Positions 45 through 32,252 of a DNA stretch of 58,159 nucleotides are shown here, piece by piece. Every line of letters begins with the position of its first letter. Position 1 is the stretch's first letter. The DNA lies in assembly GCA_021372335.1 (NCBI GenBank), contig JAJFUR010000020.1, positions 1-58,159 of the forward strand, given 5' to 3'. The position numbers and the translations under genes are program-made. The notes under the pieces are model-generated. The model did no database searches and was not told the DNA's origin. It was given only the letters and a program-made list of their open reading frames with translations. Origin of the DNA: Methanobacteriota archaeon (GTDB taxonomy: Archaea > Thermoplasmatota > Thermoplasmata > Methanomassiliicoccales > UBA472).

Positions 45-650
45 CTAGGGCAGGGTGCGCTTGACCTTGGCCACGATCTCGTCCAGCTTGACCTGGCTGA
101 TCGTGGTGCCGCGCACCACCCCGGTCACTATCTCCATTATCGTCCCCTTGGTCTTGATGTCCTCGTCCTTGGGCATGACCAGCCGGGTCTTGCACCCTAT
201 GCGGGCGAAGTCCTCGAAGTCCACTGGCGCCTGGCAGCAGATGACGGCCGGTAGGTCCACGTTCCTCAGGATCAATCTCGCCTTATAGATGATATGATTG
301 CGCACGTTGCCGAGGTGGATGAGCATCACCTTGAACTGCTGGATGCGGGCCACCTCAATTGGCTCCAGCCCGAAGAGGGAGCTTGTGGACACATCGACCG
401 CGTCCAAGGGAACGCCGGAGCCGGCGGTGATGACTATGACGGAGGTATCGATGCCCTCTTCCCGCAGCCCGTAGGTTATCTCACATACCGGCTTGGTGAT
501 GTGGCGCTTGCCGGGGCCCATGGCGATGGCCACCACGTCCCTTCCGCTGTCGGAGATCGTCGCGCGTTGGGCCAGGCTTCCGCCCACCCCCATCCCCCGG
601 GCCTCCCGGCATTCCACAAAGCGGGTCTTCCGCCCGATCGAGTCCTTCAC
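45..650 (-). CDS. mcrC: methyl-coenzyme M reductase operon protein C (McrC)
   Basis: 201-aa ORF. The blocks [36 protein letters not shown] and [11 protein letters not shown] match the McrC family as I know it. It starts 2 nt after the atwA stop. TAG stop. Confidence 0.85.
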
Positions 651-652
651 CC

Positions 653-2275
653 TCAGACCTCGCAGACCTCGGATTCCTCTCCTTCCAATTCGTCCTGGGT
701 CATGCCCCTCAGGACCTCCTGAGGAGGTCCGATGGCAACGATCTTTCCGCTCTTCATCAAGGCCACGCGATCGCAGCAGGCCAGCACGAAGTCCATATCG
801 TGGCTGACGATGAGATAGGTCTGGTTCAGCTCCTTGCGGGAGTGCAGCACTGACTTCGCCACGGCCTGGCGGGTGATGGGGTCCATGGTCCCCGTTGGCT
901 CATCGAGCACCACGAAGCGGGGCTCCATGATCAGGGTCCTTGCCAGGGCGATGCGCTGCTTCTCCCCAACGCTCAATGAGTCCGGATAGGCGTAGAGGAT
1001 GCGGTCCACCTCCTTGGCCGTGAACCCGACCCCTCGCAGGACCTGGATGGCCTTCATCTTGGCCAGTTCCTGGGGAAGCTTCATGCCCAGGCAGATCGTG
1101 AGGTTCTGCAGGACGGTGTTGAAGGGGTACAGGGCGTTCTCCTGATGCATAATCCCGATGTATTGGGTCGCCCTCCCCCTTCCCTCCTCTCCAAGGTCGG
1201 ACATGTTGATCCAGTCATCGCCGATCCGCACCAACACCTCTCCATGGGTGGCGGGAGTGATGCCGGAGATCATCCGGGAGAGGGTGGTCTTCCCGGCCCC
1301 GCTCTGCCCGATTAGGCCGAAGATCTCCTTCTCCGCGACCTCGAAGGACACGTCGTCCACGGCCTTGACCACGCCACGCACGATGGAGTAGAAGTACTTC
1401 TTCGCGTTCTTGACACGGATCACGGGCTCCCCGGTCTGGACCTCCATCTCCTTGTCCCGAACGAAGCTCACGTCGAAGGCCTTCGTGATCTCCCGGGGAT
1501 CGCCCTCGGCCTTGATCATCCCATCCTCAAGCCAGATCGCCCTATGGGAGAGCAGGTTGATGGCCTTGGGCCAATGGGAGGTGATCACCATGCTCATGCC
1601 CGTGTCCTTGACGGCCTTGATGAGCGCCTTGTGCACAATGTCCGCGGTCTCGGGGTCCAGGGTGCCCGTGGGCTCGTCCGCCAGGAAGAGCAGCGGGTCG
1701 CGCGCCAGCTGCCTGGCCAGGACCGTTCTCTGCTTCTCCCCTCCCGACAGGTCGCGGGCGATGTGCATTGTGCGGTAGGTCATGTTGACCATCTCCAGGA
1801 GCTGTATGGCCCGCTCCACCTTCTTCTCGTCCGACATGCCCTTGATGACCTCGAAGACGTTCTCTATGACGGTAAGGTCCCCGTAGAGGGCGAAGGTCCT
1901 CTGCAGCATGATAGCGATGCGCCCGCGCATGGCCAGGCGCAGGGGGTCCCGCTCGTCCATGGCCCAGAAGTCGATCTCGGTGACCTTCGTTTCCTTTCCG
2001 CACTTGGTGCACTTGGCCCCCGGCGATGGCAAATCGAGCCATCCGCAGGAGGGGCAATGGTTCACCCGGTAGATGACGCGCCCTGAATCGGGCTTGTAAT
2101 CGTGGGAGCCGCGCATCACATTGATGAGGACCGACTTGCCGCTCCCGGACCTGCCGATGAGCCCGAGGACCTCCCCTGTGCGCACCGTTGTACTGATGTC
2201 CTTCAGCACTTGGTTCCCATTGAAGCTCTTAGAGACCTTGTCCAGGATAACGAGGACCTCTGACCCATCAGGCAT
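653..2275 (-). CDS. atwA: methyl-coenzyme M reductase activation component A2 (double ABC ATPase)
   Basis: The ORF runs to 2404, but the ATG at 2275 ([13 protein letters not shown]..., 540 aa) is preferred. It has two ABC cassettes, with Walker A GRSGSGKS and GQSGAGKT and signatures LSGGEKQR and LSVGEKQR. A zinc-ribbon insert (CPSCGW...CTKCGKE) sits in cassette 1, which is typical of AtwA. Confidence 0.85.
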
Positions 2276-2360
2276 ACCTGGTTGCGAACGATTAATGCAG
2301 ATATAATACTTACCCCGTTTAGAAAGACTGGCATTAACGATTGGATGGTGCAAGCTATAT

Positions 2361-2386
2361 ATGGATGGATTATATATCCATCCTAT
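2361..2386. promoter_or_regulatory. TATA-centred inverted repeat GGATGGAT-TATAT-ATCCATCC in the divergent atwA / wHTH promoter region
   Basis: Read directly: 8-bp arms at 2363-2370 and 2376-2383 flank TTATATAT. It lies between the atwA start (2275, minus) and the wHTH gene start (2391/2397, plus). Confidence 0.55.
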
Positions 2387-2390
2387 AATG

Positions 2391-3350
2391 CCAATGTCCT
2401 TCAATTCCTACTTTGCGGGAGGCCCAACGCCTAAGTTCAGCGCCTATCACATCTGGAAGGCCCATCAGGTCGTGGCCAAGGACGGCCCCATCGGCAGGAA
2501 GGCCCTGGCCGAGGCCCTCCAAATAGGGGAGGGGAGCACCCGGACCATCCTGGACAAGATGATGCGCGAGGGTTCGGTGGAAAGCTCCCGCTTGGGGATC
2601 ACCATCACCGAGCGGGGGAAGCGCAAGCTCGACACCTCGGGGATGGAGGTGCGGCAGGTCGACCTGTCCGACCTCACCCTGGGCAAGTTCAACTGCGCCG
2701 TGCTGCTCAAGGGGGCCGCCGACCGCGTGCGGTTGGGGTGCGAGCAACGGGACGAGGCAGTGCGGGCCGGGGCCGTGGGGGCCACGACCCTGGTCGTCGA
2801 CCAGGGCCGAATAGTCTTCCCCGGGGACGAGGAGTTCCCGGACCAATCGCTGGTCGCCCCTTTGAAGAACTACTTCCGGATGGACGATGGGGATGTGATA
2901 ATTATCGGCTCCGCCTTCAGCTATGATGTGGCGGAGAAGGGGGCGGTGACCGCCGCCCTCGCCCTGAGCAACCTGTCCCGCCGCTGCTGGAACGAGGGCA
3001 CGGAACTCTTGAGCCGGGACACCGAGGCGGATGAGCTGCGCTGCCTGGCGCTCGCTGTCCATGAACTCCTGGGCCGCCTGCCGGTCACAATGCGCAGCCG
3101 GAACAGGCCGGGGGTGCGCTGCGAGGAGGGGGAGGTCATCGACACCCACTACACCGGCCCAATGCTGGAGGAGGCCATGAAACGGGGCGCGATCGTCCGG
3201 CGCGTTTCCACCAGCGGTCCTTACCGGGGGCTGCCTGTCATAGCCGTCCCGATCATGCGCAAGCGGGAGGCCATCGCGGCCATCGCCACGATGGACATCG
3301 GCAAGGGGTCGCTGTCGGAGCTGCTCGCCAAACTGGCGGAGCGGTACTAG
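2391..3350 (+). CDS. winged-helix domain protein, function unknown (DUF4443-like impression, unverified)
   Basis: The ORF is 2361..3350. Its first 8 codons are the palindrome itself, so ATG 2391 or 2397 is preferred. The N-terminal segment is HTH-like (GRKALAEALQIGEGSTRTILDKMMREG). It is divergent from atwA-mcrC. TAG stop. Confidence 0.6.
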   Translation, partial: PMSFNSYFAGGPTPKFSAYHIWKAHQVVAKDGPIGRKALAEALQIGEGSTRTILDKMMREGSVESSRLGITITERGKRKLDTSGMEVRQVDLSDLTLGKFNCAVLLKGAADRVRLGCEQRDEAVRAGAVGATTLVVDQGRIVFPGDEEFPDQSLVAPLKNYFRMDDGDVIIIGSAFSYDVAEKGAVTAALALSNLSRRCWNEGTELLSRDTEADELRCLALAVHELLGRLPVTMRSRNRPGVRCEEGEVIDTHYTGPMLEEAMKRGAIVRRVSTSGPYRGLPVIAVPIMRKREAIAAIATMDIGKGSLSELLAKLAERY

Positions 3351-5176
3351 AAATAATACCATATGCTCTCATACTCCCGCACGTCCTCTCCCCTCTCCGC
3401 AAGGGCGATCAGGAAGTCCAGGATCGGCACGTCCATGTGCACATAGGTAGGCGCTACGGCAATGTTCTTCTCCCAGGGATGGAACTCGTACACGCGCTCG
3501 CCCCTTGGGGTAATGGCGATCAGGTCGTGGTGCTGCCACGCCCGCAGATGGTTCTTTCCCAGCGCCGGGATGTTGAACACCGGTTCGTCCGTTCGGCTCA
3601 GGCCAGGTAGTAGCCTTGCCTCCTCCTTGCGCTCCTGGAGGAGCCTTGATATGGGCACCCTGTACTCGGACGTCTCCTCCTTCCCCTTGGCATTGAAGGT
3701 GTAGTAGGGGTCCACTCCGATCCTTTTAAGCGTCGAGCGCACCGCCACCGTCTCGAAGCGACGGCAGTTCTCCATAGTGAACACCTGTTGATTGTAGACG
3801 GAAATGCCAAGCGTTCGCAGGGAGCGCACGGCCTCGGCCGCTTCCGGGGTCACTTCATATGGATGCTCGAAATGGGTCACGAGCGCGAACTCCCTTCCGG
3901 GGGGATCATGGACCGCCGCCATTAGGTCAAGGAAGCCGGGGTCGATCCTCATTGGCATGACCACGGGCACCCTGGTGCCCAGCCGCAGCCTTCGTACGTG
4001 CGGTAGCTCCATCAACCTTCCCAGAAGTCTCCTGAGATGCCCGTTCGAGAGCACTCCTGGGTCCCCTCCCGTGATCAGGACCTCGCTTACCATCGGATGG
4101 TCCCTGAACCAGTCCAAGGCGGCCTCGATCTTCTCGGGCGGGGCCATGGCGTCGGGGGAGAGGACCCCTTCGATCTCCCAGTTCCGCTGGCAGTAGACGC
4201 AGATCTGGGCGCAGGTGTTGTACGGCTTGAATATGGCGATCATGGGGTACCGCCGCGTGACCAGGTCCACGGGGGAGGTCTGCCCCTCCCGCATGAAGTC
4301 CAGGGTGGCGGAGGGATCCGCCCTGGCCTTAAGTATCCCGTGGATGTAGTTGAGCGGTGGGATGACCTGCGCCCGCACCGCATGGTCGAGGCGCCGGGAA
4401 GGCTCCCTATCCATGAGGGAGAGGTAGTAAGGGGTTATTCCGAACGGGATGCGGTTCTCCCCGCAGAGGCGGATGGCCTCGCGCTCCGAGTCCGTCAGCT
4501 CGATGAGGTCCCCTATTACCTCCTCGCTCAAAAGGACGTTCCTCATCTGCCATGGATAGTCGTTCCAATCGTCCAATGTGGCGTTCAGGTGGTCCAGGAT
4601 CCGCTCGCGGTTCTTCCTGCGCCGCTCTATGACGCTGGGCTCGAGGCCGCTGACGTAACGAGATGCCTTTGCCTCCACCGCCTTGGCCAGGCCGTCGAGG
4701 TAGTCTGAGCGCCGCCGGCTTCCTTCCCTTTCGTCCATAACAGTGAGATCGGGGGCCTCCTGAAGCGCTAGCACTGGTGCCCCTGTGGTGCCCTTCATGA
4801 TGTGCAATATATCGTGGACGAAGGCGGGGTGAACATCGCCACATCCATCATCCTGCTCGAGGCAGAGGAGGTGGTGAACCACCGAAGTGCCGCTCACCCT
4901 TTCGTTCCTGGGGGAGAGAAAGTTGCGCATCACGCGGAGGCAATGGAGCGCGTTCGACCTTTCCAGGGCGTGTATCTGGCAGTCCCGGGCGTGTAGCCTG
5001 CTTTCCCTTTCATGGAGAATGGCCATTATGTTGTGGCGAGCGGCCTCGATGTCCTTGGAGGCTTGAAGGGCCTCATGCAATTGAGGGTCGCTCATCCAGA
5101 GCAGGGCGCGGGCCTCGGCGGTATCAAGCTCCGGTCCCTGGGGGAAAGCTGCGTCTGATAGCTTCGTGGTTTGCAT
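3347..5176 (-). CDS. KamA-family radical SAM / PLP aminomutase-like protein with a long N-terminal extension
   Basis: The ORF extends to 5242. The ATG at 5176 has a GGTGA Shine-Dalgarno-like element 5 nt upstream. It carries the CxxxCxxC cluster motif CAQICVYCQRNWE, ITGGDP, and a candidate PLP lysine in NIPALGKNH. About 200 aa N-terminal to the core resemble nothing I recognise. Confidence 0.75.
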   Translation of the reverse strand: MQTTKLSDAAFPQGPELDTAEARALLWMSDPQLHEALQASKDIEAARHNIMAILHERESRLHARDCQIHALERSNALHCLRVMRNFLSPRNERVSGTSVVHHLLCLEQDDGCGDVHPAFVHDILHIMKGTTGAPVLALQEAPDLTVMDEREGSRRRSDYLDGLAKAVEAKASRYVSGLEPSVIERRRKNRERILDHLNATLDDWNDYPWQMRNVLLSEEVIGDLIELTDSEREAIRLCGENRIPFGITPYYLSLMDREPSRRLDHAVRAQVIPPLNYIHGILKARADPSATLDFMREGQTSPVDLVTRRYPMIAIFKPYNTCAQICVYCQRNWEIEGVLSPDAMAPPEKIEAALDWFRDHPMVSEVLITGGDPGVLSNGHLRRLLGRLMELPHVRRLRLGTRVPVVMPMRIDPGFLDLMAAVHDPPGREFALVTHFEHPYEVTPEAAEAVRSLRTLGISVYNQQVFTMENCRRFETVAVRSTLKRIGVDPYYTFNAKGKEETSEYRVPISRLLQERKEEARLLPGLSRTDEPVFNIPALGKNHLRAWQHHDLIAITPRGERVYEFHPWEKNIAVAPTYVHMDVPILDFLIALAERGEDVREYESIWYYF

Positions 5177-5326
5177 AGGTCTCACCTTTGCCGCCCATAC
5201 CGAACCGAAAAGGAAATCGTCCCGAGGAGCGACGCTATTCATCAGGACCCCATCTTACTTATTATTTGCCCACTCCGAGCGTTTCCGAAGGATATGATTA
5301 TCTGACTTGAGCGCGATCGAGGGGGG

Positions 5327-6897: not shown

Positions 6898-7179
6898 TCA
6901 ACCGCTCCCGCTCGGGGTCACGGTGGAGATGTCCGCCACGACCTCTTCGGTCAGGCCTTGCATCTCCCCCAGGACCACCTTTCGGGTCCTTTCCTTGTAG
7001 GAGGTCCGCTTGTACTCGTCCTCGGATGCGGGGTCCAGGAGACTGGTTACGTACCAGAGGTCGTAGGTGTCGAGCAGAGCCCATTCCACCCCGTCGCGCT
7101 CCCGTACCTCCAGCACCTTTCCCACCGTCCCGGTGACGCGGTATTTTGCGAACTCCCCTACTTGCATCGGACACCTCAC
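6898..7179 (-). CDS. small conserved-looking hypothetical protein trailing mcrA
   Basis: 93-aa ORF starting right after the mcrA stop. An alternative ATG at 7167 gives [21 protein letters not shown]... It is on the same strand and tightly packed with mcrA. Confidence 0.5.
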
Positions 7180-8840
7180 CTAGCAGGGATGATCGCGGTC
7201 CTCTCGCCCATTGGCATGAACTCCCTCAGGCATCCGCGACCGAACTCCTTGGTGATGTTCGCGAAGTCGAAGGGCAGGTTCTTGTCTGCGAAGGCGATCT
7301 TGACCAGCGGGCTGGCCACGAAGGCATCGCCGCGGGCGGCGTGGGGTGCCAATGCGATACCGGTGTATCCGCTCAGGTGGCCCACGTTCATCGCGTAGTT
7401 CGGGTAGTTCGGACCGCGCAGCTCATGCGGTAGGCCCTCGTCGCTCCTGTAGGAGAACGAGTTGGCCGCCCCGCATTCGTCCTGCAGGTCGTATCCGTAG
7501 AACCCGAGCCTTCCTAGCCTCTCCCGGTGCTGATACATCGACAGGTACCAGCCATTGATCCCTGCGTTGGCGTTACCGGTGGCGAAGGCCACACCTATGC
7601 CGGTGGCGGCCGCTGCGACGGTGGCCCTCTGGGACCCTCCGAAGTGCGCCTCCATTGCGGCCGGGTAGCGCTCGTACATCTCCAAGGCGTAGGAGTTGAT
7701 CTCGGAGCCGAGCTTCTCGATCAGCTCGGTGGAGGGTTTGGACTTGCAGAACCCACCGTACTTCTCCTTGATGTGGTCCACGGCCCAGTAGGTGTAATCC
7801 TCCAGGATGTTGTCGGTATAGGCGGCGGTGGCATACTGAGTGAACCCGACGCCCCCGGACATGTAGGACCCGAGGTATATCTGGTCCAGAATCACCGCGC
7901 CCAAAGCGACAGCCTCCAGGGAGGCTCTAGCAGGGTCATCCGGCTTGGTCCTGGTGGACTGCACGCAGTCCGCCAGCACACCGAACGGGAGTCCACCGGG
8001 CTCGTTGGGGCCCCTGGCCCTCCTGGCGGGCATCATGGTGGCCATCTCCACCATCGCGGCATGCTTGGCGGCGAAGGCGAAGTCCGCGATCGCGGCCTCG
8101 CCGGCTGCCAGCCTGTAGGCGGTGATGAAGGCCATGGAGATCTGCATCGCCGAGTGCCTGGAGACCGTGGCTCCGTCGCACACGCGGCCGACAATGGTCG
8201 GGACGCGCACTACCTGCCACAGCTTCTTACCGACCGCGGCCTTCAGCTGCTTGGCCTGGTCCGCGGGGAACTCCTTGTTGATGTCGATGACGAAGCACTT
8301 GTCGATCTCGTCGATGAGCTCGTCGTCCCCGGAGAACACCTTGACGTAGGAGTCCTTCACGATCTCGGGGCATAGCTCGGCCATGTGCTCCTGCACCACT
8401 GCGCCGCCTGGCATGGTGTGGTTGACAGCCTCCAGGTAACGGTTGATGGTCTCGGGGGTGACCTCCTTCGACAGCCTCTTCTCGATGACATTGTGGGCGA
8501 CGTCCAGACCGACGATGACGGTCCTTCGTATGTCATCCCACGCCTGCTGCATCGCAGCGTTGTTCACAAAGTGCAGGTCATCGGCCTCGCCATAGATGTC
8601 GGTGTGGGACAGCTGGTAGGGCATCAAGACCCTCTGGCCGAGCGCGACACCGATATCCTGGTTCATCATTGGGATCCCGCGCTCCTTGGCGATCCTGTTG
8701 GCCTGCTCGACCCACTCCCGCTTCCTCTTGGACTGCCTCCAGCCCCCATAGGAGTAGTGTTTGGAGCGGACCTCCGTGGGGTCCTCCTTGAACTTCTTCT
8801 TCATGGCGGCGATGAACAGCTTATCCTTTTCCTTCGCCAT
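7176..8840 (-). CDS. mcrA: methyl-coenzyme M reductase alpha subunit
   Basis: 554 aa. Diagnostic blocks are [37 protein letters not shown] and [18 protein letters not shown]. Confidence 0.97.
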
Positions 8841-8842
8841 AT

Positions 8843-9625
8843 TTAGTCCTCCTTAACATCGAAGGGCTTGAAGCCGCACTTCGTTCTCAAGGTGTGGATC
8901 CTGAGGTTCTGCCTCATGACCTCCTCGTCCTCCCTCATGTCGACGCCATCGGCGCGGAACATGGCGGTGTGCTCCTTCAGCCACTTCTCGGGCATGGGCT
9001 TTCCGACAGGGACCGGCTTGTCCAGCGGGACACCCACCTGGTCCTTGACGTACTCCACCTCACCCTTCTTGGCGTTCCACCGGAACCTCTGCCAGGCATC
9101 GAACATCAGCCCGTTCTCGTCCAGCCTCACGGCGTGGCCATGCACGGTGGCGCCTCTGATACCGGTCCTCGCGGTATCGAAGGTCTCGCTGTCGATGAGT
9201 TCCTTGGCCACCTTCTCGACGTCCCTCTCCCTCATCTCGATGATCTGCCTTCCAGATAGGGTACCGGTGTCAATCCCTCTGTACCTCCACATGTACATCT
9301 GCGCCCTAACATACGGAACTATGGGGGCCCAGTATACGGAGTCAGTGAACTGAACGTACCTGATCCTGTCTCCCTTCTTAGCACCTTCTGTGGGCTCGAC
9401 GATTGCCCTTATGGGGCAGTCGGGCTCGTTGCCCTCCTCCAGCGGCGGGTGGATGGTGGCGTAGTCGGAACCGGGGACCCTGTGCCCCAGGATCTTGACC
9501 ACGTCGTCCATCGGAATGTCACGGAGCTTCTCCAGCTTGACGCTGGGGTCCATGAAGCGCCTGCGGTTCTTGGCGGGCAGGGTGGTGCCAGGATAGAATT
9601 GTGCCTTATACTTTGTCTTAGCCAT
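8843..9625 (-). CDS. mcrG: methyl-coenzyme M reductase gamma subunit
   Basis: 260 aa. The N-terminus [27 protein letters not shown] and its position between mcrD and mcrA fit McrG. Confidence 0.93.
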
Positions 9626-9626
9626 G

Positions 9627-10049
9627 TTACTTCACCAATCCTTTCATGTAGTCTGTAGTAGTGGGCCTGAACTTGTTGTAACGACCTACCTCCAATGTGA
9701 ACCCGAAGGGTAGTACTTCCTTGCATACCGCCTCGATGTCCTTCAGGGCCTGCGGCACATGGTCGATGTCGCTTATCTCAACGAATATGCGCCCGACCTG
9801 GACCGTAAGCTCGACCTCCTTTCCCTTGACCTTGATCTTCTTGCGCTCGGGATGGTCCACCGGACCGCCAGTGCCAGGACCGGACTTCATAACCGCCGGT
9901 AGCCCCTCGCCCTGGATGTTTATCTGTCGAACGTTCTTTATGTCATACAATCGGTTCAGCAGCTTTTCGGTGGTGCTTGCCATCAAAAGTCTTTCCGGGA
10001 AGATCTGGATCTCCGGAAGCGGGACTCCCTCGGAGGCAGGTGCACTCAT
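9627..10049 (-). CDS. mcrD: methyl-coenzyme M reductase operon protein D
   Basis: 140 aa. It contains [10 protein letters not shown]...[22 protein letters not shown] and lies between mcrB and mcrG. Confidence 0.85.
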
Positions 10050-10051
10050 GT

Positions 10052-11380
10052 TCAGACCAGCTCCTTCAGCCTCTTGGCCTCCTTACCGACCATCTTCATA
10101 GGGCTCTTGAACTCGTCAAGCTTGCCGAACACCTCACCCATGATGAGGGATGTGTTCTCAGCGCTGAAGTACTGCGTACCAGCGTCCAGAGCGCATCCGG
10201 CAGCGATAACGGGCACAACCGTTCCCTTGGCATGCCTGGTAACGACGTGGTTCCCATGGAACAGCCCCGGGCCGCCCCCGCCATAGATCGAGTGGCTGAA
10301 GAAGGACATGCCGACCGAGGTCCCCATGGCCCTCCCATAGTCCACACCGGGCAGGCTCGTCTCGTGCTCGATCAGGTCGTTGTAGTACAGGATCGTGGAT
10401 GGAACGCCCTGCGCAGCCCTTGCGGCACCGATGTTCACGCATATCGCGGCGAGCATACCGGCGGAGATGTAGGCATTCCACAGCGGAAAGTCGTTGGTGG
10501 TGTACTCAACGAATCCGGACGGATACTTCTTACCCTTCTTTATGACCTTGTCCTCCAAGGCGGTCCCGACCACGGAGGCGACGACGTCTCCGACGGTGCC
10601 GGTCTTGCCATTCTCCTTGACCCAGGTATAGACCATGTTGTTGCCGTTCAATCCTTGGTAGGCCAGGGACAGCAGGTGTTGTCTCTCGAAGTTGCCGATG
10701 GCATCGCCCATCTCATAGGCCGCGACGGTCTCATAGATCGAAGACAGAGCGGCCGCGTTCATCGCGTTCCTTCCCGTCAGCATGACTATGTGGTTGGCCA
10801 TGATGTTCCTGAGCGCGTAGCCAGTACCCTCGTTTAACTGCGGAAGGTCCAGGATGGATTTCAGGTTCGAGCCCGCCATACCTATGGTCTGAGGATATCT
10901 GCCCCAAACGGCGGCCTTCACCATCGAGGCCTCGAACATGCCCACATCGAACATGTCGATGATCGCCTCCGTAAGGGCGGCAGCGACGGCGGTGAATCCG
11001 TTGGTGTACTCGGCCCCAGTGTCGATCCTGGCGCTCGGGCACATCGCAACCATCCTCTTCCCGTCCGCCATGACCTTGATCTCGGTGTCATCGTCCTTGG
11101 AGACCTTCAGTGTGTCCTTCAACTTCTTGGCCAGCTTGTCCGCGTTCGCCACTATCGCGAGCTCCATGCCCCTTCCGGGGACGTTCAGTCCACCAACCGC
11201 TCCGGTCTTGAGGCTCTTCTCAATACCCTCGAGGTTGACAGCGATCGTCCTCTTGGTCAGGGAGATGGTTCGCATAATGGCGCCGTTGTTCAACGGACTG
11301 ATGGCGTCCAGAGGCACATCCCTTTCAATCAGCTTGCCTCTGTCGTCATACAAGTCCACTTTGTCCTTGTATTTTGCCAT
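10052..11380 (-). CDS. mcrB: methyl-coenzyme M reductase beta subunit
   Basis: The ORF runs to 11467. The ATG at 11380 ([17 protein letters not shown]..., 443 aa) has a GGAGGT element 8 nt upstream. The N-terminus is typical of McrB. Confidence 0.95.
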
Positions 11381-11493
11381 TTTATACCTCCTTTTCAATA
11401 GCTCGGTCCCCTCAAGTAGATTCAGCATCGATCTTGAGAAAACCGGTACCCCTTGCGGACTCGACAATGTTAAGTTAGAATATAAGCTTGATG

Positions 11494-11514
11494 ATGGATG
11501 GATAATCCATCCAT
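11494..11514. promoter_or_regulatory. perfect palindrome ATGGATGGAT-A-ATCCATCCAT upstream of mcrB
   Basis: Read directly. It lies 114 bp upstream of the mcrB ATG. On the mcr strand a TATA-like CTTATATTC (11478-11486) lies just downstream of it. Confidence 0.6.
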
Positions 11515-11519
11515 GTTAA

Positions 11520-11663
11520 ACAATAGCTTAATTTGAGTCGTGTTCCAGACAAAAATGCATCTGTTTTAACATCCTAAATTTTTTTTAATATTATTTATAG
11601 TTAATATAAATAATGTTTCATTATTAATTTATTTTTCAATTGTTCTTATAATATTGATCCCCG
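11520..11663. promoter_or_regulatory. AT-rich island between tfuA and the mcr operon
   Basis: About 145 bp that are visibly more than 75% A+T within a GC-rich genome. It contains several TATA-like runs and a T8 tract. Confidence 0.4.
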
Positions 11664-13529: not shown

Positions 13530-14018
13530 TCATCCCCTTTCCTTGGACTCGTGGGCATCGGTCATGGGAAGCGCCAGGTCGAACATCGCGTCCTCGTTGA
13601 TCGGAATCCTCTCGATGAGGATGTCCACCTCCACCCTTTGAACGTTAGGGATGCCGACAATCTTGTCCTGGATCAGGTCATAGAGCGCGTCAACGCTGGT
13701 AGAGTAGACCTCGCAAATGAGAGAATGGTCCCCGAACACCTTGTAGGCATATTGAATGCCAGGGAATCTCTTCAGTTCCTCTATGACCGCACTGAGAGGC
13801 CCCCCCACCACCTGCAGGGCGATCAGGGCTCTCATCAACCCGAGCTTTCCGATGTTCACCCGCATGGTGTATGCGTTGACGTACCCCTCCTCTTCCAATC
13901 GGGCGATACGCCTGCTCACCGTGGCCTTGGAAATACCAAGCTGGTCCCCGATGGTCCCCAGGCTTTCCCTAGCGTTCTTCCTTAATAACCTGAGGATCCG
14001 AAGGTCGATGAGGTCCAT
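13530..14018 (-). CDS. Lrp/AsnC-family transcriptional regulator
   Basis: The ORF runs to 14129. ATG 14018 gives 162 aa. It has an HTH segment (DLRILRLLRKNARESLGTIGDQLGISKATVSRRIARLEEEGYV) followed by a RAM-like C-terminus. Confidence 0.85.
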   Translation of the reverse strand: MDLIDLRILRLLRKNARESLGTIGDQLGISKATVSRRIARLEEEGYVNAYTMRVNIGKLGLMRALIALQVVGGPLSAVIEELKRFPGIQYAYKVFGDHSLICEVYSTSVDALYDLIQDKIVGIPNVQRVEVDILIERIPINEDAMFDLALPMTDAHESKERG

Positions 14019-14082
14019 GGCATTTCCTGCAAATCGGTTACATAGATACGATTGGCTGATGCAATATATGGACCTTTGTTTC

Positions 14083-14107
14083 AAAAAACGATGAAAAATA
14101 AAAAAAA
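14083..14107 (-). terminator. clustered oligo-T tracts after the DUF169 gene
   Basis: A6, A5 and A8 runs on the plus strand are T-runs on the coding strand. They lie 18-43 nt downstream of the stop at 14126. Confidence 0.35.
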
Positions 14108-14125
14108 CGTTGAGCGGTAAGGTTC

Positions 14126-14866
14126 TCATCCGCTCTTGATCTTACCCTTTTCCCGGGCGGGTTTAAGCCTTTGCAAGGCTTGGACGATCGCCTCGAGCTT
14201 GGTCGCAGGGATGCCTACCAGCATCTCGGTGGGCTCTAGGTCGGTCGCTTTGCGGCACCCATAGCATCCTATGGACACGCTGAGCGTGCCGGTGAGGTAT
14301 GGATATACGGTGGAATAGGCGCAGCTCGCCTGGAACGTTTCCATCTCAATGAGCATCTTGCCGCCCTCGAAGTATTTGGCTGCGACCGGTACAAGCCAAT
14401 AGAGCTGCTCTGGGGTCCCGGTGACGATCACCACATCCGGGGGTATCTCCGCCTTGCTGAGCGGGGACACCGCGGTAGCGATGACGTCCCCCATCTCCAG
14501 TTGGGGGCGCTCCTCTATCATTCTCCTCGCCGCTTCCTGGTTGGCGAACATGCCCAGGTTGAAGTGGAACTCCCCGCTCCTCACCTTGTCCGGGATGGGC
14601 ACCATCCCGAGCGCCGAGGCGCCCACATGGCACGCGTGCTTATCCGGTGTCAGCAGCAGCTTCTCCCCTTTCCTGGCCCTCATGACGGACTGGCAATGGC
14701 GTATGTTCTTTTCCGGGATCTCGTACCCCTTGGGCAACTGTTGCCCCTTCCTCACCAGTGTGACGGCTACTGGCTCTGTCTTCAGTTCTAGCACGTCCAT
14801 GATGATGCGGGAACAGTTGGCGTAATCGGTCATGATGATATCGAGGGGGTTGCTGGTTTTTAACAT
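14126..14866 (-). CDS. DUF169-like protein
   Basis: 246 aa. The overall pattern (LELKTEPVAVTL...HCQSVMRARKGE...ACHVGASALG...) matches my memory of DUF169 proteins. Confidence 0.65.
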   Translation of the reverse strand: MLKTSNPLDIIMTDYANCSRIIMDVLELKTEPVAVTLVRKGQQLPKGYEIPEKNIRHCQSVMRARKGEKLLLTPDKHACHVGASALGMVPIPDKVRSGEFHFNLGMFANQEAARRMIEERPQLEMGDVIATAVSPLSKAEIPPDVVIVTGTPEQLYWLVPVAAKYFEGGKMLIEMETFQASCAYSTVYPYLTGTLSVSIGCYGCRKATDLEPTEMLVGIPATKLEAIVQALQRLKPAREKGKIKSG

Positions 14867-18035: not shown

Positions 18036-18803
18036 ATGGAAGGGACGAACGCGTGGCCGGTGGTCAGTGGGGACTACGTCCTGGGGAACGAAGCCTCGCC
18101 GGTGGCGGTGCTCATAGTGGGCAGGGGGGCGGTGGACGTCCCGAAGGACCTCTTCTGCATAAAGGGCATACTGAAGACAGAGAACATCGGGCTCGAGAAG
18201 GTGATCGCCAACATCGTCTCCAACCCGCGCATCCGGCTCCTTGTCCTCTGCGGCAGGGAGGAGTTCGGGCACTTTCCCGGGGAGGCGATCCACGCGCTCA
18301 TGGCCCACGGGGTCGACGAGCACAAACGCATCAGGAACACCAGATCGGCCATCCCCTTCCTGTGCGATCTTCCGTTCGAGGCCATCGAACGCTTCCGGCA
18401 ACAGGTGGAACTGGTGGACATCATGGACGCCTCTCCGGCCAAGGAGATCGCGGCGTACGACCCTATCTATGAGTTCGACGAGGAAGGGCGGGGGCGGTTG
18501 GTGAGCACGTTGAGGACACTTGCGGAGCAGCCCCTTGAGCCGTTCCCGGAGGAGGCTGTAATAGTCCGCTCCAAGGCCCTTGCCGGTGAGGGGGGAAGCA
18601 TTGCCACCCAGTTGCACCTGGCCTCGGATGATTTCATCACCCCTATGCTCCGCCTGCCCTCGGATGGGCTGAACACAGGAATGGGCATGGTCCTGGTCTC
18701 CGAGGAGTTCGGGGTGGTCCTAGAGCCCCTGCGAGGGAAGGTGCTGACCGTCCCGTCCGTTGAGCTGGCCTTGCGATTGCGCTCCTATCTCATGGGGGTG
18801 TGA
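18036..18803 (+). CDS. soluble MtrA-like corrinoid protein (MtxA-like)
   Basis: 255 aa. WPVVSGDYVLGN, KTENIGLEKVIANIVSNPRIRLLVLCGREEFGHFPGEAIHAL and AIERFRQQVELVD align with MtrA, including the His of the cobalt-ligand region. There is no C-terminal TM helix. Confidence 0.8.
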   Translation: MEGTNAWPVVSGDYVLGNEASPVAVLIVGRGAVDVPKDLFCIKGILKTENIGLEKVIANIVSNPRIRLLVLCGREEFGHFPGEAIHALMAHGVDEHKRIRNTRSAIPFLCDLPFEAIERFRQQVELVDIMDASPAKEIAAYDPIYEFDEEGRGRLVSTLRTLAEQPLEPFPEEAVIVRSKALAGEGGSIATQLHLASDDFITPMLRLPSDGLNTGMGMVLVSEEFGVVLEPLRGKVLTVPSVELALRLRSYLMGV

Positions 18804-18804
18804 C

Positions 18805-19689
18805 ATGTACCGGTTCCAGATGGAGCAGCGGGTCCTGAGCGTCGGGGACGTGCGGGTCGGGGGGCAGCCCGGTAAGAAAAGGACGATGCTTGTTGGTTCC
18901 CTTTTCTATCCCCGGCATTCAGTCGTCCTCGACCCTCGTCGGGGGACGTTGGACCATGCTCGGTTAACGGACCGACTGGACCGCTACCTCGAGGCCGTGC
19001 GCGCCTGCGCCTGCCCCTCCGCCCTGATGCTGTACGCGGAGAGCGAGGAGGCCACCCGACCATACCTTGAAGCGGTCTGCGACCGCGTTACGGGGCCGCT
19101 TTTCGCTGATGCCGGGACCTTCCAGGTCCGATCGGCCTTCCTCAGGAACGCCGAGGAGATGGGGCTCCTGGACCGAGTGGTGTACAACACCATCAATGCC
19201 GGCCTGTCAGTTGAGGAGACGGAGGCGCTTCGGGCCTGCCCACCGGTCAACGCCGTCGTGCTCGCCTTCAATCCCAGGGGGGATGACGTGAAGGGGCGCA
19301 TATACATGCTGGAGAACGGGGACGACATCGCGCCGCAAGGGCTGATCGGCGCGGCGGAGGAGCTGGGCATCGAAAATATATTGATAGACACGGCGGCGAC
19401 CTCCCCCGAGCTGAGCGCTGGCTCCGCCCTCCGCGCCATCCTTGTTGCGAAGGCGAAGTGGGGTCTGCCGACCGGGTGCGCACTGCACAATGCCGTGGAA
19501 TGCCTGGACCTGCACGGGACGCCGGACCCGGAGGAGGCGCGCAGGAGCGTGGACAGCTCCGCCGTGGCGATCAGCATACTGGCCGGGGCGGACTACGTCG
19601 CCTATGGACCGTTCGAATACGCCAAGCGCACCATGCCGGTGGCGGCCTTCGCGGACAGGATGATGGAGCAGGCGGCGCGGGACCTCTAG
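18805..19689 (+). CDS. MtrH-like methyltransferase (MtxH-like)
   Basis: 294 aa from the ATG at 18805, 1 nt after the upstream stop. It has MtrH-family character throughout (VGGQPGKKRTMLVGSLFY...NTINA...ILIDTAA...). TAG stop. Confidence 0.75.
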   Translation: MYRFQMEQRVLSVGDVRVGGQPGKKRTMLVGSLFYPRHSVVLDPRRGTLDHARLTDRLDRYLEAVRACACPSALMLYAESEEATRPYLEAVCDRVTGPLFADAGTFQVRSAFLRNAEEMGLLDRVVYNTINAGLSVEETEALRACPPVNAVVLAFNPRGDDVKGRIYMLENGDDIAPQGLIGAAEELGIENILIDTAATSPELSAGSALRAILVAKAKWGLPTGCALHNAVECLDLHGTPDPEEARRSVDSSAVAISILAGADYVAYGPFEYAKRTMPVAAFADRMMEQAARDL

Positions 19690-27077: not shown

Positions 27078-29042
27078 TTACTTCCCCTTTCTGACCGCGG
27101 GATCGCCGGTCGCCCGGGCCACGATGTCCACCCAGGCGGTCTGCTCACCCTCGACGTTATCGCCCCCGTAGAACTTGTTCTCGTAGACGTCGCTGCGGAC
27201 CTTGATGTTCTCGGCCCCTGCCTCGTATGCGCGGTTCCACACGTACTCCTCGGCCTGCCGCCGGGCGGATGATATGGCCTGCTCCACATGACTGTACGTA
27301 CCGGTCGAGCCGAAGGGACCGAGGACGTAGAAGACGTTGTCCATATTGGGATAGACCTGGGCGGTGACGGTCTCGGAGATCTTACTGCATACCGCCCCGA
27401 CGGCGTTGCCGACGTCGTGGTCCCTTGGAATGACCACCCTGACGTCCATGCGCTTCTCGAGCGGGGGCATGTAGATCGGGGTCGGCGCCCCTATCCCGAC
27501 CAGTGGCCGGTCCAGTCTGGTCCTGAGGACCAAGCTGCTTCCCTGGTTCCCATTGACCGTGGCGCGGAGGAGATAGTTGAAGCCTGGACCGTCCGGCATC
27601 TCCCCCGATTCGTCGAGGACGATCTTCCTCATTACCTCCTCTCCGACCCGGGTAACGAACTCCTGCTGGAAGGACTCCAGGCATTCCCCGACGGTCGTAT
27701 GGGTCCGATCGGCGATGAACTGCACGCCCAGCCGGGCCGCCTCCACATCGAAGCGGGTGAAGTGGCCCTGCACGTGCATGAAGTCCGTGGCGGTGAGCCC
27801 CGTCATCTGAAGGAAGCCGCGGTCCTTGAGATGCTTGACCACGTCCCGATATGTATACACCTCGGGGGCGCCGCGCCTGATCTCCTCCAGGGTGCAGAGC
27901 GGGTTGGCCTTGACGAACTCGTACACCTCCTTCTCCTTAGGGGAAAGCTTGGCCGTCCCCCTCTCCACAGGAAGGTAGTAGTTGGTCTCGCCAGTGGCGC
28001 CCATCCTCTCCCTCAGCCGGGGATGGGCGACCGAGGCCACGGCCAACGGCACCACCCGCTCCGGCCCGATCTTGAAGTTGCCCCTCTGATCGGGGACGAC
28101 ATGCGAGTCCCCGCCCAGGCCCACGGTCCAGATGTCTATGGCCCGGACCCTGGTCCGCCAATGGCCGACGGTCGCCCCCTCCTTGGAGATGCGTGGGAAG
28201 CCATCATCCAGGAAAGCGATGTCCGTGGACGTGCCCCCGATGTCCACCACGATGAAGCTATCCTCCTTGCTGAGCAGCTTGGCGCCCATCAGGCTTGCGG
28301 CCGGCCCGGACAGGATGGTCTCCACGGGGCGCTCCCGGGCCTTCTCGATGCTCATGAGGGTCCCATCCCCCTTGAAGACCAGGATCGTGGCGTCGATGCC
28401 CCTCTCCTTCAGGGAGCGCTCCACCCCGTCCAGGAACTCGGATATGACCGGTAGCAGCCTTGCGTTGAGCACAGCGGTGACGCTGCGCTCCGGCACACCG
28501 AGCTGAGAGGTCAGATGATGGCCCAGCACGACCGGCAGGCCGGTCCGTTCCTTGATGGTGCGGGCCGCCTCGATCTCATGGGCGGGGTTGTACACGCTGA
28601 AATGGCTGGAGACGACGAAGGAGTCGACCTCTCCCTTCATTCTTTCTATGGCCTCCTCGAGCGCGTTGGTGTCCAAGGGGGCGAGTTCCTGGGCCCATAC
28701 CCCGTGCCCCCCCTTGATATAGGCATCCATGTCCGCCCCCGAGCGGAACCCGGGCGTCGGGGTCCATCCGATCCCTATATGCCCAACCTTGCCGCCCTTC
28801 CCGGTCAAAATGGAATTGGTGGCGAGGGTCGTGGAAAGCCCTACGAACTGGATCTCGCTTCGCTCACATTCCTCGCACTGCAGCACATCGTCGATCGCCT
28901 CCAGGACCCCGATGGCCAGGTCTTGGTACGTGGTCTGGGCCTTGCCCTTTGCCAGGACCTCCAGGCTCTCCATGTCCACGATCGCCGCATCGGTGTATGT
29001 GCCCCCAGTATCAAGCCCAAGTCCAAGCTTCCTGGTCGCCAT
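27078..29042 (-). CDS. hydantoinase/oxoprolinase-family (HyuA-like) protein
   Basis: 654 aa. It has an ASKHA phosphate-1 motif (GLDTGGTYTDAAIV) and a second one (VVDIGGTSTDIA). Confidence 0.75.
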   Translation of the reverse strand: MATRKLGLGLDTGGTYTDAAIVDMESLEVLAKGKAQTTYQDLAIGVLEAIDDVLQCEECERSEIQFVGLSTTLATNSILTGKGGKVGHIGIGWTPTPGFRSGADMDAYIKGGHGVWAQELAPLDTNALEEAIERMKGEVDSFVVSSHFSVYNPAHEIEAARTIKERTGLPVVLGHHLTSQLGVPERSVTAVLNARLLPVISEFLDGVERSLKERGIDATILVFKGDGTLMSIEKARERPVETILSGPAASLMGAKLLSKEDSFIVVDIGGTSTDIAFLDDGFPRISKEGATVGHWRTRVRAIDIWTVGLGGDSHVVPDQRGNFKIGPERVVPLAVASVAHPRLRERMGATGETNYYLPVERGTAKLSPKEKEVYEFVKANPLCTLEEIRRGAPEVYTYRDVVKHLKDRGFLQMTGLTATDFMHVQGHFTRFDVEAARLGVQFIADRTHTTVGECLESFQQEFVTRVGEEVMRKIVLDESGEMPDGPGFNYLLRATVNGNQGSSLVLRTRLDRPLVGIGAPTPIYMPPLEKRMDVRVVIPRDHDVGNAVGAVCSKISETVTAQVYPNMDNVFYVLGPFGSTGTYSHVEQAISSARRQAEEYVWNRAYEAGAENIKVRSDVYENKFYGGDNVEGEQTAWVDIVARATGDPAVRKGK

Positions 29043-29091
29043 GGATCATCCCAGGGGACAATGGCATCGACGATATATGATTATTACACCC

Positions 29092-30453
29092 TCAGAGAAG
29101 GAGGGCGAAGGGCAGCATGAGGACGGAGAAGAAGGCGGCGGCCGTGCCGGCCACCTTGAGCGCCCTCACGCCCTCCGGCCTAGCCTGGCAGAGCAGCGCC
29201 AGCGACGCCAGGAGCGCCATTTGCGCACCCCCCATCAGAACGTACCTTTCCCTGACGCCCCCGAGATCGTCGATGCGGAGATCCCCGGCCAGGACCATTA
29301 CCGCCAGTCCCTCGAGGGCGATCACCGTCAGCGAAAGGAGGGAGAGCGCGGAGACGACGAGCTTTGCCCTTCCTCCCAGCCTCGGGCTGTCTCGAATGAT
29401 CCACATGGACAAGGCTACCACTGAGAGGGCGAGCAGCTGCGCTCCGGCAAGCCGGAAGGTTCCCTCCAATATCCCTCCGATGCCCTCGATGTGGGTGTTC
29501 GCCGCGAGGGCCATTGCGAAGACGCCCTCGAAGGCCAGCATCGCCATCGAGGCGGCCGCTATGAATTGGACCAGGGACCGGCGGTCGAGCCTCTCAAGGC
29601 TGAGCTTCCATAAGATGGGTGAGACCAGCCCCAGGGCGAACAGCTGGGCGATGCCCGCTACAACGTACCCTTTGGTGGCGTTGCCGGCGCCGGCAACGGT
29701 CACCGAGCCTGCCACAGTGGAGACGGCGACCGCGGCGGCGGCGACCAAGCCCCCGAGCACGCCCATGACGGGCAAGGCCCAACCCAGCCCGATGCGCTTT
29801 TGAAGGCGGGGAGCAGCCCAGGGATCGCTGGTGATCGTCCAAACGAGAAAGATGAGGGCCCCGAGCAGGAAGAGCCCTGCTCCGGCATACACCATCGTCC
29901 TTTCCAGGACCGTTCCGAGGCCAGTGATGGTGGCGTTGCCCGCGATCCCTATTGCGGTTAGGCCCTCCAGCATAAGCATGGCGGAGGCCAGCGAGCCCAG
30001 GGTGTCCGCGAGCCAATTGACCGGGCGGATGTCCCTTAGGCGCCACAGCCTCAGGGAGAGGACGGCGATGGCGAAGAGCTGCGCCCCTATCAGGACGATC
30101 CATTTCTTTCCAACGCCCCCGAAGCCTTCCACGTTCACGTTCCCGGCGATGAGGACCATGACCAACCCCTCCATGGCCAATATAACCATGGCCAGATAGG
30201 TGAGGAGGTCGAACAGTCTGACCAGCACTGTTCGCCTCGGCTCGGGGAAGGCGATCTTCAAGGCCCACATGGCCCCAATGAAAATGCCGAGGGCCGTGAG
30301 TTGAGCGGCCGCTAGTGTGAATGTGGAGGCGAGGATGGTACCGAGGCCCTCTATGCTTGCTTGAGCAGCGATACTGAGGGCGAAGAGCCCCTCGAAGATG
30401 ATGGTCCAGCTCAAAAGCGTTCCGAGCAATGTTCGGCTGGTGATTCCCCTCAT
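29092..30453 (-). CDS. polytopic membrane protein built from six tandem ~70-75-aa repeats
   Basis: 453 aa. The motif (F/L/M)EG(L/V)x5-6(A/L)A(G/A)Nx3(E/T/D)GxG...GAQLxAL recurs six times; the fourth copy is degenerate. Confidence 0.7.
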   Translation of the reverse strand: MRGITSRTLLGTLLSWTIIFEGLFALSIAAQASIEGLGTILASTFTLAAAQLTALGIFIGAMWALKIAFPEPRRTVLVRLFDLLTYLAMVILAMEGLVMVLIAGNVNVEGFGGVGKKWIVLIGAQLFAIAVLSLRLWRLRDIRPVNWLADTLGSLASAMLMLEGLTAIGIAGNATITGLGTVLERTMVYAGAGLFLLGALIFLVWTITSDPWAAPRLQKRIGLGWALPVMGVLGGLVAAAAVAVSTVAGSVTVAGAGNATKGYVVAGIAQLFALGLVSPILWKLSLERLDRRSLVQFIAAASMAMLAFEGVFAMALAANTHIEGIGGILEGTFRLAGAQLLALSVVALSMWIIRDSPRLGGRAKLVVSALSLLSLTVIALEGLAVMVLAGDLRIDDLGGVRERYVLMGGAQMALLASLALLCQARPEGVRALKVAGTAAAFFSVLMLPFALLL

Positions 30454-30507
30454 CTCTTCCCCCTACCCTCCCAGTTACCAATTTCCTGATTTATACAACT
30501 TGTGCAA

Positions 30508-31371: not shown

Positions 31372-31420
31372 TAAATATATTCATAATATTTTATTTATAT
31401 ATAATTGAATAAAAAAAAGA

Positions 31421-31428
31421 GATTGGGG
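31421..31428 (-). terminator. oligo-T (T8) tract after the corrinoid protein gene
   Basis: An A8 run on the plus strand lies 11-18 nt downstream of the TAA at 31439-31441. Confidence 0.45.
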
Positions 31429-31438
31429 GCGAAGCCCT

Positions 31439-32074: not shown

Positions 32075-32133
32075 TTCTATTTTCCTCCAAAGAAGTTTTC
32101 TGCCACCAAATTTCTATCTAAACTAATAAACCC

Positions 32134-32191
32134 TTGGATGGATGGATGAGATATCCAAAGCCTTTTTATTGGATGGATTATACATCCATAT
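32134..32191. promoter_or_regulatory. two GGATGGAT-type inverted repeats upstream of the corrinoid protein gene
   Basis: Read directly: TTGGATGGATGGATGAGATATCCAA at 32134-32158, and GGATGGAT-TATAC-ATCCAT at 32171-32189. They lie 60-115 bp upstream of the ATG at 32074. Confidence 0.5.
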
Positions 32192-32252
32192 CATTATGCC
32201 ATACACTATCGTTAATGGCGTTTAGGGACATGATATTTATACTGCGCGACAT

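Follow-up and report, generated by a model that had tools for sequence, protein, structure and literature searches.

The mcr locus and its palindrome

The stretch of archaeal DNA analysed here (the window; 58,159 bp, 61% G+C) comes from a member of the Methanomassiliicoccales and carries the mcrB-mcrD-mcrG-mcrA operon on the minus strand (7176-11380; Pfam MCR_beta and MCR_alpha, and the map of open reading frames, ORFs). This operon is the presumed regulated target of the DNA element described below, a palindrome that recurs at two further promoters of the window. The assignment to this order rests on McrB homologues, the closest of which is 91% identical; no identical McrB was found. Methyl-coenzyme M reductase (MCR) makes nearly all biological methane. 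To our knowledge, the control of its genes is largely unknown, and our literature searches found nothing published on mcr control in gut or wetland Methanomassiliicoccales.

The palindrome, ATGGATGGAT-A-ATCCATCCAT (11494-11514), spans 21 bp with no mismatch, and its near edge lies 114 bp from the mcrB ATG (11380, minus strand), exactly as an earlier reading of the window made from the letters alone (the sequence-only reading) had reported. The core that proves to be conserved, TGGATGG-N5-CCATCCA, occupies 11495-11513. Reading along the mcr strand, CATCAAG-CTTATATTC (11493-11478) comes next after the palindrome and contains the TATA-like stretch that the same reading placed directly downstream. 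The genes ycaO and tfuA and an Lrp gene precede mcrBDGA on the same strand, tfuA ending at 11664.

The sequence-only reading had further listed inverted pairs of the half-sites GGATGGAT and ATCCATCC at 2363-2383, which are found there, and two paired sites upstream of a corrinoid protein gene, which are now placed at 32139-32157 and 32170-32188. Its impression that no other intergenic region of the window holds the paired motif is confirmed by a scan allowing up to 3 mismatches to the 14-position consensus. Even at 3 mismatches, no site lies upstream of the MtrA/MtrH-like, RACo/RamA and URO-D/MtaA-like genes of the window.

Short patterns give weak statistics over the whole window, and the significance of the motif comes from its restriction to intergenic DNA and from its conservation. 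The 8-mer GGATGGAT alone is not significant (8 found, 4.9 expected), and GGAT-N9-ATCC is modestly enriched (5 against 2.15 in dinucleotide shuffles). The pair GGATGGAT-N(0-8)-ATCCATCC occurs twice against 0 expected in shuffles, which is significant. The comparison of intergenic with coding DNA that had been proposed with the palindrome, run within the window, gives four matches to TGGAT-N9-ATCCA, all in the 4967 bp (8.5%) that are intergenic, and none in coding DNA. The expectation from per-segment intergenic shuffles is 0.003, and four or more matches were reached in 0 of 3000 shuffles.

Conservation at the mcr promoter

The comparison covered about 60 related Methanomassiliicoccales loci overall; for mcr, 51 mcrB loci were fetched with 10-kb flanks and their upstream regions were read. 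TGGATGG-N5-CCATCCA is present in 33 mcr promoters, that of the window and those of 32 loci whose McrB identity ranges from 91% down to about 60%. Its usual location is -125 to -134; lineages whose leader is longer have it at -164 to -177. The arms carry no mismatch in 30 of the 33 promoters and one mismatch in the other three (L012, L017 and L027), and all three substitutions are uncompensated. The central 5 bp vary freely (TTATC, CTATC, TTGTC, TACTC, TGCTC, CTCTC, TTGGA and others), so the 21-bp perfection in the window is partly incidental. The motif is absent from the mcr upstream regions of seven loci of other methanogen lineages, for example Methanofastidiosia and Methanomicrobiales.

These alignments also settle the register of the site. 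The sequence-only reading had described arm spacings of 1 bp at mcr and 5 bp elsewhere; this is literally true of the letters of the window, but GGAT-N9-ATCC is the one register universal to the sites, and the apparent difference in spacing is due to the GGAT repeat. The alternative register TGGAT-N5-ATCCA was rejected: it fits all five sites of the window and fails at mcr promoters with a changed centre (L013, L021 and others).

Both flanks of the mcr site are conserved as well. Directly after the operator, on the minus strand, lies CATCAAGCTTATATTC (11478-11493), which, from the archaeal promoter consensus and from conservation, would serve as the TFB recognition element (BRE) and TATA box of mcrBDGA. 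In the anchored alignment CAAgCTTAtAT is conserved, and the downstream flank is CAAGCTTATAT, read as BRE plus TATA, with the TATA 8-9 nt past the arm. Immediately upstream of the operator lies a second conserved element of high information content, CTATTGTTTAAC (ATyGTTTA; 11515-11526, minus strand), and the upstream flank across relatives consists of a conserved ATyGTTTA block and CTGG.

Further downstream, the mcr 5' leader (11381-11460, minus strand) holds a near-invariant CGCAAGGGG by the inferred start, followed by a hairpin-like CTCAAG...CTTGAG. This holds across the mcrB loci (L001-L051), and CGCAAGGGG is retained even in the Methanomethylophilaceae, which have no canonical operator.

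The regulator gene and its promoter

The second site precedes a gene on the plus strand (2391-3350) for a winged helix-turn-helix (wHTH) protein, which we treat as the candidate regulator. The gene is divergent from mcrC and atwA, the latter encoding MCR component A2 (45-2275, minus strand; NCBIfam TIGR03269 and TIGR03264). Orthologue alignment places the atwA start at 2275, and the intergenic region shared with the regulator gene is 115 bp; atwA-mcrC are possibly co-regulated from it. Its synteny with mcr and atwA is kept throughout the Methanomassiliicoccales. In 27 loci an orthologue was located at a distance of 6.8-8.8 kb from mcrB, and the Methanomethylophilaceae, at 42% identity, are among them.

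At this promoter the site is a composite operator, TGGATGGATTATATATCCATCCT (2362-2384), in which two GGAT-N9-ATCC registers overlap with an offset of 4 bp. The TATA-like CTATATAT (2356-2363, plus strand) abuts the left arm, as a TATA-like box does in every orthologue. A stretch at 2334-2348 (plus strand), 20 bp upstream of the composite operator, contains the element TTAACGAT and then an extra TGGATGG half-site, whose TTGGAT is conserved in close relatives. In all 25 readable orthologous promoters the order is TATA, palindrome, ATG. Most Methanomassiliicoccaceae have the 23-bp composite, with one perfect 7-mer arm in each register; the canonical form is found in L027, and TGGAT-N9-ATCCA in the Methanomethylophilaceae. 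Since only about 30 bp separate TATA and ATG and no Shine-Dalgarno sequence is present, the regulator transcript is probably leaderless, which would place the operator over about -24 to -2.

The conserved start of the regulator is the ATG at 2391, which gives 319 aa by orthologue alignment. Gene callers choose the ATG at 2361, inside the palindrome (329 aa, P0001), a start that the orthologue alignment does not support. The same mis-start (MDxPSM...) occurs in ORFs downstream of operators on three other contigs (L106, L073 and L146).

The corrinoid operon

The third location is upstream of a four-gene operon on the minus strand (27078-32074; Pfam and NCBIfam assignments, conserved gene order). 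The corrinoid protein (31439-32074, minus strand) is encoded first. Next come the genes for a 287-aa protein that weakly matches an ArsR-type helix-turn-helix (HTH) domain (30508-31371), a conserved 453-aa protein with no Pfam or NCBIfam match (29092-30453) and a hydantoinase/MutL-like protein of 654 aa. Two operators precede it: C1 (32139-32157; TGGATATCTCATCCATCCA on the gene strand) is proximal to the promoter and conserved in orthologues, and C2 (32170-32188; TGGATGTATAATCCATCCA on the gene strand) lies 31 bp from it, centre to centre. The BRE/TATA-like TCCAAGGGTTTATTAG of the operon lies at 32123-32138 (minus strand), its TATA 8 nt after C1.

The site is present at this operon in six of six distinct lineages (67-90% identical; genomes of 46-58% G+C). 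Orthologues that are 88-90% identical (L052-L056) share the duplicated site of the window, with 31 bp between the copies, and more distant orthologues have one copy. Every orthologue has TTTAT(T/A)A 8 nt beyond the site, as part of a conserved AAGGGTTTAT(T/A)A, and the proximal arm is always a perfect CCATCCA. The position of the site relative to BRE and TATA is the same as at mcr.

A protein of about 450 aa like that of the third gene is also encoded in L052, L055, L057 and L186, often beside URO-D (MtaA-like) genes, and is a candidate new substrate:corrinoid methyltransferase.

With all three promoters at hand, the specificity of the motif can be stated. The loci anchored on mcrB or on the corrinoid gene, which come almost exclusively from the Methanomassiliicoccales, add up to 935 kb. 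TGGAT-N9-ATCCA matches 71 times in them, and 70 of these matches lie at mcr, regulator or corrinoid promoters; the single match elsewhere equals the chance expectation. An alignment of orthologous promoters, the check that the sequence-only reading had put forward, finds the site conserved at mcr, the regulator gene and the corrinoid operon alike: the half-sites are kept around a free spacer, and matches are confined to promoters far above chance.

A second element accompanies the palindrome. TTAA(A)CRAT (reverse complement ATyGTT(T)AA) has only three copies in the 58 kb of the window, each beside a palindrome (2334-2341, 11516-11524 and 32208-32215). Orthologous promoters of all three classes, mcr, regulator and corrinoid, retain the element, which may represent the site of a second factor or an extension of the operator.

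The candidate regulator protein

The 319-aa protein, encoded about 9 kb from the mcr palindrome, consists by Pfam of a wHTH domain (PH0730-like_N), DUF4443 and DUF2111. The PH0730-like wHTH (PF22167, 48.4 bits) and DUF4443 (PF14544, 95.4 bits) both score above the Pfam cut-offs; the protein has no NCBIfam name. Residues 1 to about 190 match PH0730 (PDB 2p8t) with E=3.5e-13 and a Foldseek TMt of 0.76, and the AlphaFold (AF2) model has a pLDDT of 84. The wHTH superposes on the DNA-binding domain of CggR bound to its operator with a root-mean-square deviation of 0.7 Å over 62-64 columns at 26-27% identity (Foldseek), and the Pfam CggR_N score is 29.9 against a cut-off of 30. The Pfam scan revealed no C-terminal sugar-phosphate-binding effector domain of the SorC/CggR type, and no TrmB or SurR (ArsR-like) family match. 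Foldseek also matched IclR regulators, in which a wHTH is joined to an effector domain that binds a ligand. Further matches, spanning about 110-140 columns, are ligand-binding proteins with dCache and GAF domains. These matches suggest that the rest of the regulator may be a ligand-sensing module.

In a census of 1.84 billion representative proteins the family has 837 relatives, mostly of about 200 aa (wHTH plus DUF4443). The three-domain form is found in only about 10 of them, as a fused variant that extends beyond the typical 200 aa, and some relatives are stand-alone DUF2111 proteins of 110-130 aa. The motif G-E-G-x-x-R-T of the recognition helix (G46, E47, G48, R51 and T52) is invariant in long and short forms.

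Stand-alone DUF2111 genes lie next to mcr in two metagenome-assembled genomes (MAGs) of methanogens outside the Methanomassiliicoccales. In both (L036, 4723-5106, and L043, 4808-5188), the gene stands between mmp6 and mmp5 in the cluster mmp6-DUF2111-mmp5-mmp15-mmp17-mmp7-mmp3, directly upstream of mcrB, and its product is 45% identical to the C-terminus of the regulator. Mmp7, Mmp17, Mmp3, A2 and McrC form an ATP-driven MCR activation complex (PMC12176620). We considered whether DUF2111 is the small protein co-purified with that complex and rejected this, since that protein is DUF2098 and DUF2111 is absent from the co-purified set (PMC12176620); the link between DUF2111 and MCR activation is therefore genomic only.

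Occurrence of the motif outside the Methanomassiliicoccales

An exact-pattern scan of metagenome contigs returned at least 120 loci. Among the matches listed, 86 fall within long ORFs, in many cases on contigs rich in GC, and were set aside as chance occurrences; about 10 have an AT-rich, promoter-like context and are informative. Among these listed matches, one is an mcr promoter (L076), one belongs to a second corrinoid plus URO-D operon (L177) with activator-type geometry and a gap of 8-9 nt between arm and TATA, and several show the order TATA, operator, ATG before membrane or transport genes. The genes preceded by the palindrome include ECF-S-like plus DUF4430 pairs (L106, L136 and L166; ECF, energy-coupling factor), an orthologous pair of membrane protein and DUF4430 (L067 and L146, which share 47% identity), a membrane protein gene next to those for ECF A/T components (L073), cbiM (L126) and cbiQ/O (L127). 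When the ECF-S-like and DUF4430-like proteins were compared by sequence with the PDB, no useful match emerged, and the putative connection of these genes to B12 is read from Pfam names.

In one of these settings the palindrome adjoins a regulator homologue. On L166 a wHTH-DUF4443 gene, whose product is 32% identical to the window regulator, is divergent from the ECF-S operon. Homologues of this short regulator are encoded on three longer contigs (L179-L181) in an equivalent setting, again with a perfect TGGATGGATAATCCATCCA between the divergent genes. In all, four contigs have the identical TGGATGGATAATCCATCCA between the short regulator and the ECF-S/DUF4430 operon. Proteins of L179 cluster at ≥90% identity with Nitrososphaerales MAG proteins, and a protein of L146 clusters at ≥90% identity with one from a Hadesarchaea MAG; on that Hadesarchaea-like contig, with its membrane protein/DUF4430 pair, the palindrome is present and no regulator gene was seen. 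The presence of the regulator-operator pair on Nitrososphaerales-like contigs suggests that the pair is old and widespread.

This linkage of short homologues to the palindrome is the strongest computational argument for the predicted binding of the window protein to the window palindrome. The wHTH protein had been named as a candidate binder from the letters of the window, and it gains in plausibility as the predicted one: its own promoter always carries the site, and its short relatives adjoin an identical palindrome. The proposal that the palindrome is the operator of a methanogenesis regulon is supported by footprinting across relatives at all three promoters. It needs correction in one respect: the motif is not exclusive to methanogenesis, as it also precedes ECF-S/DUF4430, cbiM and cbiQ genes in other archaea, sometimes together with a regulator homologue. 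These settings hint that short PH0730-like regulators may control a regulon for the uptake of corrinoid or cobalt.

Proposed mechanism and alternatives

We consider it likely that the palindrome is the operator of a dimeric winged-helix factor of the PH0730 family, most likely the 2391-3350 protein, which would repress its own gene and probably activate the mcr and corrinoid operons. The dimer would bind two inverted TGGATGG half-sites, 12 bp apart from centre to centre. At mcr and the corrinoid operon the site would end 8-9 bp upstream of the TATA, abutting the BRE, and its centre falls at about -47 and about -48, respectively, from the inferred starts; a regulator bound there would help to recruit TBP and TFB and so drive the operons. 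This position next to the BRE is where archaeal activators such as Ptr2, TrmBL1 and SurR bind, and activation is therefore probably the role of the site at these two operons, with repression by blocking of the BRE almost equally plausible.

At the regulator's own promoter, the weaker composite site would fill the space between the TATA and the leaderless start and block polymerase recruitment, giving negative autoregulation. The quality of the match declines from mcr (perfect) through the corrinoid operon (1-2 mismatches) to the composite at the own promoter, and the affinity ranking that this implies would fit an autoregulated activator with mcr as its main target. The two C-terminal alpha/beta domains would sense a small molecule or a protein partner. 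Given the stand-alone DUF2111 in the mmp cluster next to mcr, the signal may relate to the status of MCR or of its cofactor.

Several points weigh against this assignment. The Methanomethylophilaceae keep the site at the regulator gene and have no canonical site at the proximal mcr TATA; their mcr upstream region contains a degenerate GGnTTATGCATCCAkCC at about -225. In one Methanomassiliicoccaceae MAG (L050), a different palindrome, TGGTGATAATCACCA, takes the equivalent place at mcr. The 4-bp repeat leaves it ambiguous which register would be bound at the regulator's own promoter. A site that abuts the BRE could repress, not activate, and an unlinked short PH0730-like paralogue of the same specificity could be the true binder at mcr.

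The TGGTGATAATCACCA palindrome of L050 lies about 180-200 bp upstream of mcrB, directly upstream of the mcr TATA, and no regulator orthologue occurs within 10 kb. L050 may represent a natural swap of operator and regulator.

The same protein might be a pure repressor everywhere, occluding the BRE and the contact with TFB at mcr and the corrinoid operon and shutting down the methanogenesis genes under some condition. The site ends 1-2 bp from the purine-rich BRE-like stretch, and on non-methanogen contigs it extends over the region where transporter genes start, an arrangement typical of repressors. However, mcr is the best-matching site, with perfect arms in nearly every promoter, and the centre at about -47 has the geometry of the activator sites of Ptr2, TrmBL1 and SurR. 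The mcr genes are essential and very highly expressed in methanogens, so a permanently high-affinity repressor site would be odd there, and we regard repression at all promoters as plausible but less likely.

Alternatively, a different protein might bind the operator, namely the Lrp/AsnC regulator (13530-14129, minus strand), the corrinoid-operon protein with the weak ArsR-type HTH or a short PH0730-like paralogue encoded at an unlinked locus. The Lrp gene lies near ycaO-tfuA-mcr in the window and in relatives, but has no motif upstream of it; the HTH protein is transcribed from a motif-bearing promoter, but is missing from the motif-bearing corrinoid operons of L057, L182, L184 and L186. Short PH0730-like proteins are far more numerous than those of the three-domain form and occur together with this palindrome, but no short paralogue turned up in the Methanomassiliicoccales loci covered, which amount to about 1 Mb and to a minor fraction of each genome, and it is the three-domain gene that has the site in its own promoter in every readable orthologue. 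Taken together, a different binder seems unlikely. The other local regulators (Lrp, two ArsR-type proteins and the corrinoid-operon HTH protein) were set aside as candidates, having either no motif at their own promoter or no conservation with it.

A nucleic-acid hairpin, acting as a ycaO-tfuA terminator or processing signal or as an mcr leader structure, is suggested by the perfect 10-bp stem with its 1-nt centre between tfuA and mcrB on the same strand. This is highly improbable: the sequence of the arms, beyond their pairing, is conserved and its substitutions go uncompensated; the arms recur at unlinked promoters, including between TATA and a leaderless ATG, where they would not be transcribed; the palindrome lies upstream of the conserved mcr TATA; and an Rfam scan of the window found one tRNA and no structured RNA at the palindrome. 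Chance matches from GGAT-rich, low-complexity, AT-rich intergenic DNA, to which the unenriched 8-mer and the modest window-wide excess of GGAT-N9-ATCC might point, are effectively refuted by TGGAT-N9-ATCCA matches that are all intergenic, positionally conserved in dozens of genomes and essentially absent elsewhere in the 935 kb.

Beyond the operator and its candidate regulator, we put forward a broader and decidedly speculative picture. PH0730-like proteins might be pan-archaeal sensors of tetrapyrrole cofactors (corrinoid, perhaps also F430, nickel or cobalt) acting at TGGATGG-N5-CCATCCA, an archaeal counterpart of B12 riboswitches. The ancestral member would have repressed ECF-type corrinoid or cobalt uptake genes, the setting found on Nitrososphaerales-like and Hadesarchaea-like contigs, and a DUF2111-fused copy would have become the master switch of the Methanomassiliicoccales. 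DUF2111 would have been borrowed from the mcr-adjacent mmp cluster, part of which encodes MCR-activation proteins. Through this switch, the mcr and corrinoid methyltransferase operons would be transcribed according to the supply of cofactor or the status of MCR; together these operons constitute the whole energy metabolism of these H2-dependent methylotrophs.

Comparison with known systems

The closest parallels in site architecture are TrmBL1, with the Thermococcales glycolytic motif TATCAC-N5-GTGATA, and SurR of Pyrococcus and Thermococcus, with GTTn3AAC. In both, a short palindrome is common to several promoters and the regulator's own gene has a site; a site upstream of BRE and TATA activates and one between TATA and start represses. 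The same two positions occur here, with the TATA boxes as predicted. The proteins belong to the TrmB and ArsR-like families, whereas the window regulator combines a PH0730-like wHTH with DUF4443 and DUF2111, and the motif also differs. The known regulons concern sugar or redox metabolism; the present one, predicted from sequence, would comprise MCR, corrinoid methyltransferases and transporters.

In sequence, fold and the GEGSxRT of the recognition helix, the regulator resembles PH0730 of Pyrococcus horikoshii (a structural-genomics entry labelled 'hypothetical protein'), which lacks the DUF2111 domain; we found no operator, regulon or ligand for PH0730 in the literature searched. With CggR/SorC proteins it shares the wHTH that superposes on the operator-bound CggR domain, but not the SorC-type sugar-phosphate-binding domain.

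Methanogens do have dedicated factors for methyltransferase or central genes, among them the Msr proteins and MreA of Methanosarcina and NrpR of Methanococcus, the last of which recognizes a short inverted repeat near the promoter, GGAA-N6-TTCC. They belong to unrelated families; the window regulator has no DUF1724, TrmB or NrpR domain, and literature searches found no palindromic operator at the mcr promoter itself for Msr, MreA or NrpR.

Bacteria typically have a B12 riboswitch upstream of B12 uptake and cobalt transport genes. The palindrome stands directly upstream of comparable genes (ECF-S/DUF4430, cbiM and cbiQ/O), on contigs that are archaeal where their origin was checked. It differs in kind: the riboswitch senses through RNA, and the palindrome is a predicted DNA operator for a regulatory protein. 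No cobalamin riboswitch was found in the whole window (Rfam, gathering threshold).

Full-text literature searches returned nothing on DUF2111, on the function of DUF4443 or PH0730, on a palindrome at the mcr promoter or on a matching archaeal B12-type regulator. The proposed operator-regulator pair is of a well-known kind, a transcription factor with its operator, and owes its unusual importance to its target and to the orphan family concerned. The analysis supplies a defined 19-bp operator, a named candidate regulator and a predicted regulon of mcr, corrinoid methyltransferase operons and the regulator gene. It proposes a DNA motif and a first functional context for the PH0730 family, which has had a structure since 2007 without a function, and, through the genes around it, connects the orphan DUF2111 with the methanogenesis-marker cluster beside mcr, some members of which encode MCR-activation proteins. 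If the broader picture is true, archaea would have a protein-based counterpart of B12 riboswitches.

Other features of the window

A gene for a KamA-family radical-SAM aminomutase-like protein of 631 aa with a long N-terminal extension (3347-5242) lies tail-to-tail with the regulator gene, between it and mcrA. At 18036-19689, MtrA-like and MtrH-like genes stand beside a RACo/RamA-type corrinoid activase gene and a metallo-beta-lactamase-fold gene; this order, with no palindrome upstream, is kept in L057, L184 and L185. The sole Rfam match of the window is the tRNA gene at 40367-40440.

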